Sequence record: NC_054924.1
Length of the DNA stretch: 64,000 nucleotides
Origin: Escherichia phage vB_EcoM_Lutter
Direction: 5' to 3' (one strand)
In this document: positions 4,517 through 40,737 of the stretch, in pieces
How the letters are laid out: each line of letters begins with the position of its first letter
Numbering within the stretch: position 1 is the first letter of the stretch
Notes under the pieces: generated by a model
The model's input: only the letters and a program-made list of their open reading frames with translations
The model's database searches: none
What the model was told of the DNA's origin: nothing
Made by a program: the position numbers and the translations under genes

Positions 4517-5117
4517 GGTGTCTTTTCCATCCTAATTTAGCTGCTTTTGAAACCAGTTCTTTAATTTTTCCTTTTGTCCATTCAGGACCAGGAGGTTCAT
4601 GACATAACAATTGCTTAACTCCGTTATTATACCATTTTTTACCTTTATTATGTGATGAAGCTTTAAATTTATTTGACCTTCCTTTTACATAACCTTCTGG
4701 AATATAAGGCAAAAAGGCAGATTTTCCTGTTAATGGATCATGTGAATGTATATTTCCTTTACAATTATGAGAACCATATAATGGATGATTTTGTCCTTTA
4801 TTATCTCTTCCAAATGAACCTTTTGGAGCAGCATATGACATATTAAAGAATAATGGATTTTTAACTGCATCATGCAATCGTTGATAATATAACTCGCATT
4901 TAATAGCTTCTTCACGTGTATCAAATTCAGCTAAAATGCATGAATCAAATAAGTGAGGATTATCTAAAAGCTCTTTATTATAAATTTTCTTATACTTTTT
5001 AGATAAAACTGAACCATGATATCCAGCTAAATGCCTATCTAAAGACGTAGATCCAATATAAAAAGGAGGAAGTTTATCTCCACTATATATTGTTAAATAA
5101 GTTATATATTTTTTCAT
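4494..5117 (-). CDS. free-standing GIY-YIG homing endonuclease (seg-like)
   Basis: 207 aa; N-terminal YITYLTIYSG...FYIGST (GIY-YIG), C-terminal Gly/Lys/His-rich NUMOD-like region; overlaps end of gene 47. Confidence 0.65.
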   Translation of the reverse strand: MKKYITYLTIYSGDKLPPFYIGSTSLDRHLAGYHGSVLSKKYKKIYNKELLDNPHLFDSCILAEFDTREEAIKCELYYQRLHDAVKNPLFFNMSYAAPKGSFGRDNKGQNHPLYGSHNCKGNIHSHDPLTGKSAFLPYIPEGYVKGRSNKFKASSHNKGKKWYNNGVKQLLCHEPPGPEWTKGKIKELVSKAAKLGWKRHHENTKLG

Positions 5118-39163: not shown

Positions 39164-39199
39164 CTTATTTCCTGTTTTAATTTGTAGATTTAATATACT

Positions 39200-39207
39200 T
39201 ATTTATA
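39200..39207 (-). promoter_or_regulatory. late promoter for internal-protein-like gene
   Basis: TATAAATA on minus strand 36 nt upstream of ATG at 39163, just after terminator hairpin. Confidence 0.55.
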
Positions 39208-39213
39208 CTAAAA

Positions 39214-39237
39214 AGCCCCAACCTTTCGGCTGGGGCT
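39214..39237 (-). terminator. intrinsic terminator at end of tRNA/small-RNA region
   Basis: GCCCCAGCC-GAAA-GGUUGGGGC then UUUUU. Confidence 0.6.
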
Positions 39238-39283
39238 AAGCCTTGCGGCAACCTTGTCGGGGTTCCACCTGCTAAGGCAAGTG

Positions 39284-39548
39284 TTTGTACGAAACGCCGG
39301 GATTCGAACCCGGTTATTAAGCAGTTGACGCTACTCAATATTTTTAAAAGGCCATATCTCGACCATATCCGAACGTTCCGTCAAAAACGCTACTCGGCTT
39401 ACGGCAAAGATATTTCCTCGAATCGATAATTCTGTGCGCCGTTTCTGCTGTGATGTAAGGGGATATTAACAAATCGTAAAGATTTATTAAGACCAGTCCT
39501 TACTCAGGGAACATCAGTCCGACGTCTTGCCGGTAGCGACCCGGCTTC
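39284..39548 (-). ncRNA. candidate structured small RNA(s), tRNA-like 3' module (possible species 1/2 RNA equivalents)
   Basis: Noncoding; canonical T-arm CCGGG-UUCGAAU-CCCGG at 39296-39314 with 7-bp acceptor-like pairing, but no canonical anticodon arm; further stems upstream. Confidence 0.35.
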
Positions 39549-39893
39549 TTATTTTGGCATATCATCAATTTGCTCTCGACGCCGACGCCATAGATTAATC
39601 GCTTCATTGGCACATTCTGCGTTTGGTATATGACGGCAGCAATATAATGATTCGCGTTTCTGGAACCGATGTTGCAACGGAATTTCGTTTAAAAGGTCTT
39701 TACGGTCAAAGTATTCAAAACTAGTTAACCCGGAACGGTTTTTAAGAAACTTCCAATATCCGAATTCATTTTGAAAATAGACATAATCAGCATGCTGATA
39801 CAGCGAATTAATTAACCTATCGGAAATAACAGTGTCATTGTGATTAAAATAGAATGTTAAATCATGAACTACTAAATAAACATTACCTTTCAT
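39549..39893 (-). CDS. hypothetical protein (114 aa) within tRNA region
   Basis: ORF. Confidence 0.4.
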   Translation of the reverse strand: MKGNVYLVVHDLTFYFNHNDTVISDRLINSLYQHADYVYFQNEFGYWKFLKNRSGLTSFEYFDRKDLLNEIPLQHRFQKRESLYCCRHIPNAECANEAINLWRRRREQIDDMPK

Positions 39894-39909: not shown

Positions 39910-39985
39910 TGGTCGAGGCAGTAGGGATCGAACCTACGACCTAGGACTTAGAAGGTCCTTGCTCTTCCTTCTGAGCTATGCCTCG
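39910..39985 (-). tRNA. tRNA-Arg (anticodon UCU), CCA encoded
   Basis: Hand-folded cloverleaf: acceptor CGAGGCA/UGCCUCG, anticodon loop CUUCUAA, T-loop GGUUCGAUCC. Confidence 0.8.
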
Positions 39986-40251: not shown

Positions 40252-40737
40252 TTATTTTATGTAGTATTTATTTAAAAACTTTCTAGCTTGAGTATGGCTA
40301 ACATTTATAGCGTTTGCATAATTTTTAATAAAACCTCGTTCATCCATATTAAAATTTTCTAATATTTTTAATCGTCTAGTTATCTCATCTTGGCTTAAGG
40401 TACTTGCATTATTTTTAGAAATTTTTTCTAAAGACTGCACTGAGTGTTTTCGACCATTAAAATTAAAATTTTTAGATTTTGGAGGAAATCTATCATTTAG
40501 TCTCGCATCTTTTGTATTTTGATTATTAGTTGCGCAATATATGTTATTTAATGAGTATGGTCCTTTATCACCAAAACGACACATACAGTATTCATGACCC
40601 TTTCTTCCACGCTTATCATAATTTCCCGTTGATTTCCACCAATTCAACCACTCATCAAAAGTTAAATTCCATTCAATGTTTCTACGTATAGCAGAATTCC
40701 GCTGAGAAATATATTTTGCATAATCTTCTTTCATCAC
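40252..40737 (-). CDS. HNH homing endonuclease inserted within the tRNA cluster
   Basis: 161 aa; GHEYCMCRFGDKGPYSLNNIYCATNNQN HNH-type motif. Confidence 0.55.
   Translation of the reverse strand: MMKEDYAKYISQRNSAIRRNIEWNLTFDEWLNWWKSTGNYDKRGRKGHEYCMCRFGDKGPYSLNNIYCATNNQNTKDARLNDRFPPKSKNFNFNGRKHSVQSLEKISKNNASTLSQDEITRRLKILENFNMDERGFIKNYANAINVSHTQARKFLNKYYIK

Follow-up and report, generated by a model that had tools for sequence, protein, structure and literature searches.

Homologs of the phage T4 small stable RNAs rnaD and rnaC downstream of the tRNA genes of Escherichia phage vB_EcoM_Lutter: comparative structure, distribution and possible roles

The region downstream of the tRNA genes

We analyzed a stretch of 64,000 nucleotides (nt) from Escherichia phage vB_EcoM_Lutter (NC_054924.1), hereafter called the window, and within it a segment of ~260 nt which follows the tRNA genes and corresponds to the location of two small stable RNAs of phage T4, rnaD and rnaC. 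Eight tRNA genes were identified in the window, between positions 39910 and 41123 (ARAGORN; Rfam agrees). All of them are encoded on the minus strand, and therefore the region is to be read on that strand, as are all features described below. In this direction, tRNA-Arg (39985..39910) is followed by an open reading frame (ORF) of 114 amino acids (aa; 39893..39549), by the ~260 nt with no credible ORF, and by a strong intrinsic terminator. The placement of the segment downstream of tRNA-Arg and the 114-aa ORF, given in a preliminary description made from the sequence alone, thus holds, and so does its statement that no ORF is present: only short ORFs overlap the segment, their starts are weak or variable and they are lost in some homologs.

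The closest relatives of the window in our phage collection are T4-like myoviruses, i.e., RB69 and other Mosigvirus and Tequatrovirus (megablast). In the T4 reference genome, two misc_RNA features lie directly past tRNA-Arg, namely rnaD (“small, stable RNA; species 2 RNA”) and rnaC (“species 1 RNA”), and the original record of Broida and Abelson (X03016) annotates the same two features as species 2 and species 1 RNA. Aligned with the T4 rnaD-rnaC-trailer-terminator segment, positions 39560..39200 show a mean column identity of 95%. The rnaC of the window is 98.6% identical to that of T4 (T4s001; AF158101/X03016) over 143 nt, with two substitutions, and its rnaD is ~86% identical to the X03016 species 2 RNA (T4s002) over 116 nt. 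Covariance model R1 gives the window rnaC a score of 168.9 bits, with a single copy in the window, and both halves of the region fold far more stably than shuffled controls (z = -3.8 and -3.6).

Based on these sequence comparisons, the minus strand of 39552..39289 very probably encodes orthologs of T4 rnaD and then rnaC, in the last, 3′-terminal part of the polycistronic transcript of the tRNA cluster. Both RNAs belong to the T4 rnaC and rnaD families, as judged by homology, context and structure. Their identity is already known, both having been mapped in T4 since the 1970s, and the finding itself, orthologs of two RNAs long present in the T4 map, is minor. The stable small RNAs of the T4 tRNA region were one of two possibilities raised in the preliminary description, and this proposal proved correct, except that the ~260 nt treated there as a single region are actually two separate RNAs. 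The rnaD homolog (39433..39552, ~120 nt) aligns to T4 NC_000866 positions 71053-71171 and X03016 positions 4615-4734. The rnaC homolog (39289..39425) is 137 nt long, with ends as in X03016. Between them lies a 7-nt spacer, GAAUUAU (39426..39432), which by alignment with T4 is the 5′ leader of rnaC; in T4, the two annotated RNAs are 6 nt apart. As in T4, rnaC is found on the same strand as the tRNAs, in the same place between rnaD and the terminator and with the same helices, and its ends are presumably the same. For rnaD, T4 and the window have in common the 5′ hairpin, the core, the rod-like architecture and the class of apical sequence.

Some points weigh against this assignment. Expression evidence comes from T4, another phage than Lutter, where RNA-seq and Northern blots revealed RNAC and RNAD as late RNAs (PMC9697503). 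In T4, rnaD starts 2 nt past tRNA-Arg, whereas in the window it comes after the 114-aa ORF, as it also does in RB69 and PYps47T; this is a difference in gene order and no evidence against homology. The 3′ end of rnaD is encoded in T4 as a tRNA-like terminus, ...GGCGC-A-CCA, while most relatives have ACCG or ACCU and the window has ACAG (39435..39432) with no CCA. Finally, within P2, the rnaD basal stem (GACGUCG), a U-to-A change private to the window (39525) produces an A·A mismatch. As for Rfam, the search of the window at gathering thresholds and at E<=10 returned no family for rnaC or rnaD, only a weak tRNA-Sec match and chance matches, and Rfam 15 was found to contain no family matching either RNA.

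Secondary structure of rnaC

The structure of rnaC was derived from 18 distinct sequences (alignment A3) of T4-like phages, five Karamvirus lineages and one Winklervirus, Serratia phage LC53. Covariation in related genomes, whose absence the preliminary description had counted against its reading, is present for both the rnaC and the rnaD folds; the comparative data thus provide a covariation-backed secondary structure for both RNAs, in which the acceptor helix of rnaC is formed by its own termini. We found that rnaC is a 137-nt four-way-junction tRNA mimic, with a 70-nt arm and a 26-nt hairpin in place of the D and anticodon arms. It is tRNA-like in the acceptor/T-arm half only, and the earlier wording, a tRNA-like 3′ module with no canonical anticodon arm, describes it fairly. 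The fold comprises 47 pairs, with 97.4% of alignment cells paired and double changes in 17 pairs; none of 500 shuffles was as good, and controls slid along the alignment were paired in 39–46% of cells. It is also the unconstrained minimum-free-energy fold (-50.2 kcal/mol), and the same fold is predicted independently in six of seven lineages.

The acceptor-like helix joins the 5′ strand CGAUUCG (39419..39425) to the 3′ strand CGUUUCG (39290..39296), past which U39289 is the last nucleotide according to X03016. Of its seven positions, five are Watson-Crick pairs and the other two are invariably U·U mismatches; at the third pair, 11 sequences have A-U and the other 7 have G-C, none of the 18 being unpaired there. 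In X03016, the 5′ end of species 1 RNA (4741) is the first C of CGAUUCG and the 3′ end (4877) is the lone U past CGUUUCG, at the discriminator position. Such agreement of the annotated T4 ends with the helix ends would be expected if the ends of the RNA are set by a tRNA-type helix. Directly adjoining the 3′ strand is the T-arm CCGGG-UUCGAAU-CCCGG (39297..39313), with a 5-bp stem paired in 100% of cells and a 7-nt loop. The preliminary description had recognized it at 39296-39314; the arm is real, with the exact span 39313..39297, and it covaries, the third pair being G-C in 13 sequences, U-A in 4 and A-U in 1. The motif is tRNA-specific in the window: GGTTCRANTCC occurs there in seven copies, six in bona fide tRNAs and one in rnaC, against a chance expectation of 0.14. 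The T-loop consensus is gone in the MY742 and LC53 lineages.

The other half of the molecule begins with the long arm AGG...CCU (39349..39418, 70 nt), which has 27 pairs, 95–99% of cells paired, double changes in 8 pairs and an invariant tip, UUGACG (39384..39379). In EnC15 and KaAlpha most of this arm is swapped for unrelated sequence, and in EnC15 the arm is still a hairpin. It is followed by a single-stranded A/U linker, UUUAAAAA (39341..39348, 8 nt), which differs between genera. Mimicry of an anticodon loop by the CUUUUAA linker was considered and rejected, as neither register nor sequence is conserved across genera. Next comes hairpin 2 (39315..39340), 26 nt long, with 10 bp, a 6-nt loop, 98.3% of cells paired and changes on both sides in 7 of its 10 pairs; X03016 marks this stretch as “pot. 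stem-loop structure”. Its loop, CGUCAA (39330..39325), is invariant and reverse-complementary to UUGACG, the tip of the long arm.

The preliminary description had assigned a different partner to the 3′ strand, namely the internal CGGAACG (39380..39374), and had taken this strand as the boundary of a ~91-nt element. According to this alternative, which we regard as very improbable, 39380..39290 would be a degenerate class-II-like tRNA whose acceptor is CGGAACG/CGUUUCG and whose long variable arm is hairpin 2, the hairpins further upstream forming a 5′ extension distinct from it. The 7-bp pairing of 39380..39374 with 39296..39290 does exist, being perfect (with one G·U) in T4-like phages and entirely Watson-Crick in UFV01. 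Furthermore, the Rfam tRNA-Sec model weakly aligns to exactly this unit of ~93 nt (16.6 bits, E=1.8), ARAGORN calls it “tRNA-Phe” in Entb43 and “tRNA-Met” in UFV01, both Karamvirus phages, and rnaC is labeled tRNA-OTHER or tRNA-Phe in some GenBank records. However, the tRNA-Sec score does not reach the gathering score of 47, and we judged the two ARAGORN calls permissive because the Rfam tRNA model rejects them, recovering none of six divergent rnaC copies at E<=1; such calls account for the occasional mislabeling of rnaC in GenBank. The variation among the 18 sequences also argues against the internal helix. At its third pair, 11 sequences have G·U, one has G-C and 6 have the mismatch A·C; double changes are seen in no pair, and the G-to-A change which breaks the internal pairing turns a U·G of the long arm into U-A. 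CGGAACG sits in the long arm and is paired there with the upstream GCGUUUU, and EnC15 and KaAlpha do not have the internal strand at all while retaining the 5′/3′ terminal helix. When the internal pairing is imposed, the energy is -36.9 vs. -50.2 kcal/mol, i.e., 13 kcal/mol worse, and the mature 5′ end in T4 lies 45 nt upstream of the internal strand. The conserved partner of CGUUUCG is the 5′-terminal CGAUUCG, and the ~91-nt element is not supported.

The second possibility raised in the preliminary description, a degenerated tRNA, finds no support if it is taken to mean a pseudogene in decay: rnaC is more conserved than the neighboring tRNAs, and its helices are kept via compensatory changes. 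A remote tRNA ancestry of rnaC may still apply. The tRNA-mimic structure has, in turn, its own difficulties: the acceptor-like helix contains two U·U mismatches, no CCA is encoded (UACAA comes next in all lineages), covariation in this helix is confined to one pair and probably reflects few independent events, and the internal pairing, being perfect in T4-like phages and UFV01, may represent an alternative conformer.

The UUGACG and CGUCAA loops remain unchanged even where the adjoining stems are rewritten, and invariant unpaired loops next to covarying stems imply a sequence-specific constraint beyond stability. Their mutual complementarity could be a kissing-loop, a dimerization contact or an alternative fold, and it is offered as a lead only: 31% of shuffles give a 6-mer complement between the two regions, which makes the sequence statistics not significant, and the contact is beyond the reach of covariation because both loops are invariant. 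We also observed that in EnC15 (L006:1126-1267) and KaAlpha the new long-arm tip approximates the reverse complement of the entire hairpin 2, with a 19-bp duplex of -31 kcal/mol.

Comparison with known RNAs places rnaC next to tRNAs without making it one. Similar to canonical tRNA (RF00005), especially class II with a long variable arm, rnaC is a four-way junction with a 7-position terminal helix, a 5-bp T-stem and a 7-nt T-loop, it is located in or beside tRNA gene arrays, and it probably shares the maturation enzymes of tRNAs. It differs in having no D arm, no 7-nt anticodon loop, two U·U mismatches, no encoded CCA and a length of 137 nt. In the window, ARAGORN and the Rfam tRNA model call eight tRNAs, none of them over rnaC, and the best match from the tRNA clan is tRNA-Sec at 16.6 bits vs. 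47. With the tRNA-like domain of tmRNA, rnaC shares a 5′/3′ acceptor-like helix beside a T-arm and a long helix on the anticodon side; yet it lacks the G3·U70 pair (pair 3 is A-U or G-C), an encoded CCA, a tag reading frame and the pseudoknot ring, and searches of the window for tmRNA returned nothing by ARAGORN and no Rfam tmRNA match. We conclude that rnaC is no tRNA by any model and that neither of the two RNAs is a tRNA or tmRNA. In mascRNA/MEN-beta, the gammaherpesvirus 68 vtRNAs and YrlA, excision from a longer transcript depends on a tRNA-like module that attracts RNase P or tRNA 3′-end enzymes, and the small stable RNA obtained is non-decoding. The resemblance of rnaC to these RNAs is in concept only, with no similarity in sequence or model: the Rfam mascRNA and YrlA models gave no significant match over rnaC and only weak chance matches over the neighboring real tRNAs. 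Moreover, YrlA carries its tRNA-like module distally and uses the RNA ends for the Ro-binding stem; in rnaC, the ends make up the acceptor helix.

Structure of rnaD and distribution of both RNAs

Based on 22 distinct sequences (alignment A4), rnaD is a rod-like hairpin whose core is invariant and whose tip is hypervariable, with a further hairpin at the 5′ end. The 5′ hairpin P1, GCCGG-GUCGCUA-CCGGC with a 7-nt loop (39529..39545; RNAalifold consensus), has a closing pair which is A-U in 14 sequences, G-C in 5 and G·U in 3, and its remaining four pairs and the loop GUCGCUA are invariant. The rod (39434..39526), consisting of P2, an internal loop, P3, P4 and the apical hairpin, is likewise given by the RNAalifold consensus and by covariation. 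The basal stem P2 pairs GACGUCG (39526..39520) with CGGCGCAC (39441..39434) and in this way uses the 3′ end of rnaD. Above it are the invariant internal loop GACUGA (39519..39514)/GAAA (39445..39442) and P3, in which UGUU (39513..39510) pairs with AGCA (39449..39446) and the first pair is U-A in 13 sequences and A-U in 7. Three pairs of P4 covary (A-U:9/G-C:9, U-A:18/G-C:4 and A-U:18/U-A:4). The rod ends with the hypervariable apical hairpin (39506..39451), which covaries within the class to which the window belongs. In the rnaD fold as a whole, 97.8% of cells are paired, 29 cells carry double changes, and none of 500 shuffles was as good. Beyond P4, the apical 45–50 nt fall into three unrelated sequence classes set between near-identical flanks; these classes cross genus boundaries, and the window shares that of T4.

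We found 749 phage records matching rnaC, 491 of them at >=99% and 191 at 95–99% identity, and 733 records matching rnaD, 20 of them at >=99%. A query of similar length covering tRNA-Arg and tRNA-Asn gave 1547 records, of which 74 were at >=99% and 125 at 95–99%. Since rnaC is found at >=99% in far more records than the adjacent tRNAs, it is under a stronger sequence constraint than the real tRNAs of the phage. Members of the rnaC family also occur in Karamvirus and Winklervirus and in phages of Kosakonia, Erwinia and Cronobacter. In the copies examined from the first two genera, rnaC is placed as a tRNA gene would be, within the tRNA array and without rnaD, 4–6 nt from the preceding tRNA and, where a next tRNA is present, 5–8 nt from it. 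In turn, rnaC is cleanly absent from several T4-like contigs (L189:393-560, L190:316-480, L145, L197, L206) and from Dhakavirus UP19 (L212), in which rnaD is fused to the trailer (...GGCGCACCGA|ACACTTGCC...). At this junction the window (39432..39285) and T4 carry ~148 nt extra (AUUAU-rnaC-UACAA). We conclude that rnaC is a presence/absence cassette and that rnaC and rnaD are independent modules.

A further natural variant is Escherichia phage AV115, where tRNA-Arg, rnaD and most of rnaC are deleted by a fusion within the T-loop shared by tRNA-Asn and rnaC, which suggests T-loop-mediated recombination within tRNA arrays. The resulting hybrid gene (L207:851-925), annotated as tRNA-Asn, consists of the 5′ two-thirds of tRNA-Asn, the GGTTCGAATCC T-loop, the last 25 nt of rnaC and the trailer; it is probably a dead tRNA with mismatched acceptor strands. 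Other rearrangements concern rnaD. Two of the contigs without rnaC (L189:~300-392 and L190:~225-315) carry, between a T4-type tRNA-Arg and rnaD, a mini-copy of the rnaD core of ~70 nt (GCCGUCG...GGACUGAU...CCGGCGCAAC) without the 5′ hairpin and the apical domain. In a T4-like contig from IMG/VR (L142:4100-3950), rnaD is preceded by an ORF and not by a tRNA, and two GC-rich direct repeats (GAGCGGGCGGTGCGCCCGGTAGTATG / GAGCGGATGGTGCATCCGGTACTATG) past rnaD replace rnaC, the trailer and the terminator.

Outside the phage collection, a metagenome pattern scan (TTCGAGGA...TAGCGTCAAC) and a scan of IMG/VR for CCGGGTCGCTACCGG returned mostly chance matches in unrelated contigs, and ~25 true loci were left after an nhmmer filter. 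No similarity to either RNA was detected in 5,426 complete E. coli genomes, where a host counterpart was sought, and no pattern matches for either RNA were obtained in 185,579 species-representative genomes. In nearly all of the ~745 carrier genomes rnaC and rnaD are unannotated, and the labels, where present, are hypothetical protein, tRNA-OTHER (G9062) or tRNA-Phe (KKP_3262). A description of both RNAs is thus of practical value for the annotation of T4-like genomes.

Processing and possible function

In T4, a promoter lying ahead of the tRNA cluster gives rise to a primary transcript of ~1.75 kb that stops after the species I gene; the eight tRNAs and the species I and II RNAs are all derived from it (PMC2330249). 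In the window, a terminator scan identified an intrinsic terminator of the tRNA-cluster transcript at 39209..39237, composed of AGCCCCAGCC-GAAA-GGUUGGGGCU (hairpin 39237..39214) and UUUUU. The UAA stop codon of the 114-aa ORF (39551..39549) overlaps the 5′ end of rnaD, which places an mRNA and a stable RNA in one precursor. A 7+5-bp acceptor/T-arm stack is the minimal substrate of RNase P, and a dimeric precursor of species 2 and species 1 accumulates in RNase P mutants, according to work of the 1970s–80s. On this basis, RNase P should cut between U39426 and C39425, a cleavage that would release rnaD carrying a short 3′ tail and would create the 5′ end of rnaC; it would be the acceptor/T-arm minihelix that enables this cleavage to be precise. 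Next, 3′ exonucleases would trim both RNAs back to their terminal helices, and the tight structure and tRNA-like ends would make both metabolically stable. The T-loop of rnaC is probably modified by TrmA and TruB, for which the consensus loop is a plausible substrate. A point against this scheme is that the dependence of the species 1 5′ end on RNase P is inferred from anatomy.

The biological roles of RNAC and RNAD were stated as unknown in 2010, 2022 and 2025 (PMC3014915, PMC9697503, PMC12685909). Our literature search found no functional study of either RNA, the earliest biochemistry (1970s–80s) lying outside its reach. The likeliest functional reading, which we put forward with low confidence, is that both are stable RNAs processed by tRNA enzymes and with a role in the interaction with the host. 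As a non-decoding tRNA mimic, rnaC would occupy or distract a tRNA-recognizing factor, and rnaD would act via its fast-evolving apical hairpin. A more specific version, and a slightly more doubtful one, sees in them RNA-based host-interaction or counter-defense factors, rnaC being a decoy or blocker of a host tRNA-recognizing enzyme and rnaD a scaffold with a host-determining tip. The candidate targets of such a decoy include an anticodon nuclease or a different immune effector directed at tRNAs, as well as enzymes of tRNA maturation or modification, and the conserved scaffold of rnaD would present an apical hairpin deciding the success on particular host strains.

The only experimental hint on function is an evolution study of the T4-like phage BW1, in which all three lines adapted to E. 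coli ECOR34 gained the same single-nucleotide polymorphism (SNP) in the rnaC-rnaD region, while virulence on this strain rose from 0.17 to 0.98 in the RBG measure (PMC12685909). By coordinates, this SNP appears to lie ~73 nt into rnaD, in the hypervariable apical part. The SNP, the rnaC cassette and the three genus-crossing classes of rnaD tip are compatible with the counter-defense reading and are no demonstration of it. A partner, target or host homolog was looked for and none was found, which speaks against the host-interaction reading in general and makes the functional part speculative.

Alternatively, the two RNAs would have no function of their own. They would be structured leftovers of the processing of the tRNA transcript, or a 3′ stabilizer/terminator module for the upstream tRNAs and ORF, kept by their nuclease resistance. 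This explanation, in our opinion unlikely, agrees with the function having been reported as unknown for 50 years and with natural phages devoid of rnaC (L189, L190, L145, L197, L206 and UP19) or of both RNAs (AV115). The dispensability of both RNAs in some natural phages also counts against the host-interaction reading. T4 mutants with deletions of the tRNA region are viable on laboratory strains. Nevertheless, leftovers of processing would hardly be more conserved in sequence than the real tRNAs of the phage, as rnaC is, nor be retained in other genera at a different position of the tRNA array; likewise, the loops are invariant while the stems covary, and the BW1 SNP in rnaD goes along with a large host-specific phenotype.

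It is also conceivable, and in our view quite improbable, that the two RNAs regulate mRNAs of the phage or the host by antisense base pairing, the variable tip of rnaD or the loops of rnaC being the seeds. The conserved scaffold of rnaD with its hypervariable hairpin does resemble a swappable specificity module, and in rnaC an A/U-rich single-stranded linker adjoins the hairpins. However, the longest complementarity to either strand of the window is 12–13 nt, compared with a mean of ~11.7 and a maximum of 14–16 nt for shuffled queries, and the variable part of rnaD is mostly base-paired internally. No similarity or complementarity was found in E. coli genomes, by a search insensitive to short seeds. 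Finally, we rejected coding by the small ORFs of 42 aa (39472..39344) and 53 aa (39338..39177), an extremely improbable explanation in spite of the frames being open in the window and several homologs, as the starts are TTG, GTG or shifted ATG, the 42-aa frame is lost in RB69 and both are lost in L012, substitutions obey RNA-pairing rules, the rnaD tip classes are unrelated in sequence and unequal in length, and the T4 products are known RNAs.

The useful outcomes of the comparison are the corrected structure, the conservation contrast with real tRNAs, the phages lacking rnaC or both RNAs and the division of the rnaD tips into three classes. Combined with the SNP reported for BW1, these data make the 50-year-old question of species 1 and species 2 function somewhat easier to address experimentally.

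The remaining features of the locus are a trailer and two flanking ORFs. Between rnaC and the terminator lies a highly conserved 3′ trailer (39238..39288) with three short hairpins, outside the mature RNA, which follows rnaD directly in phages without rnaC. The trailer measures ~50 nt, one of its hairpins has a GCAA tetraloop, and folded together with the terminator it gives z = -4.1. It is kept even in phages lacking rnaC and may be a processing or stability element. The flanking ORFs have no Pfam match and belong only to PHROGs families of unknown function. The 114-aa ORF is assigned to phrog_3355; it sits between tRNA-Arg and rnaD in the window, RB69 and PYps47T, but not in T4. A 161-aa ORF (40737..40252; phrog_16521) is located within the tRNA cluster, flanked by tRNA-Ser and tRNA-Met, where its placement is comparable with that of segB in the T4 cluster.

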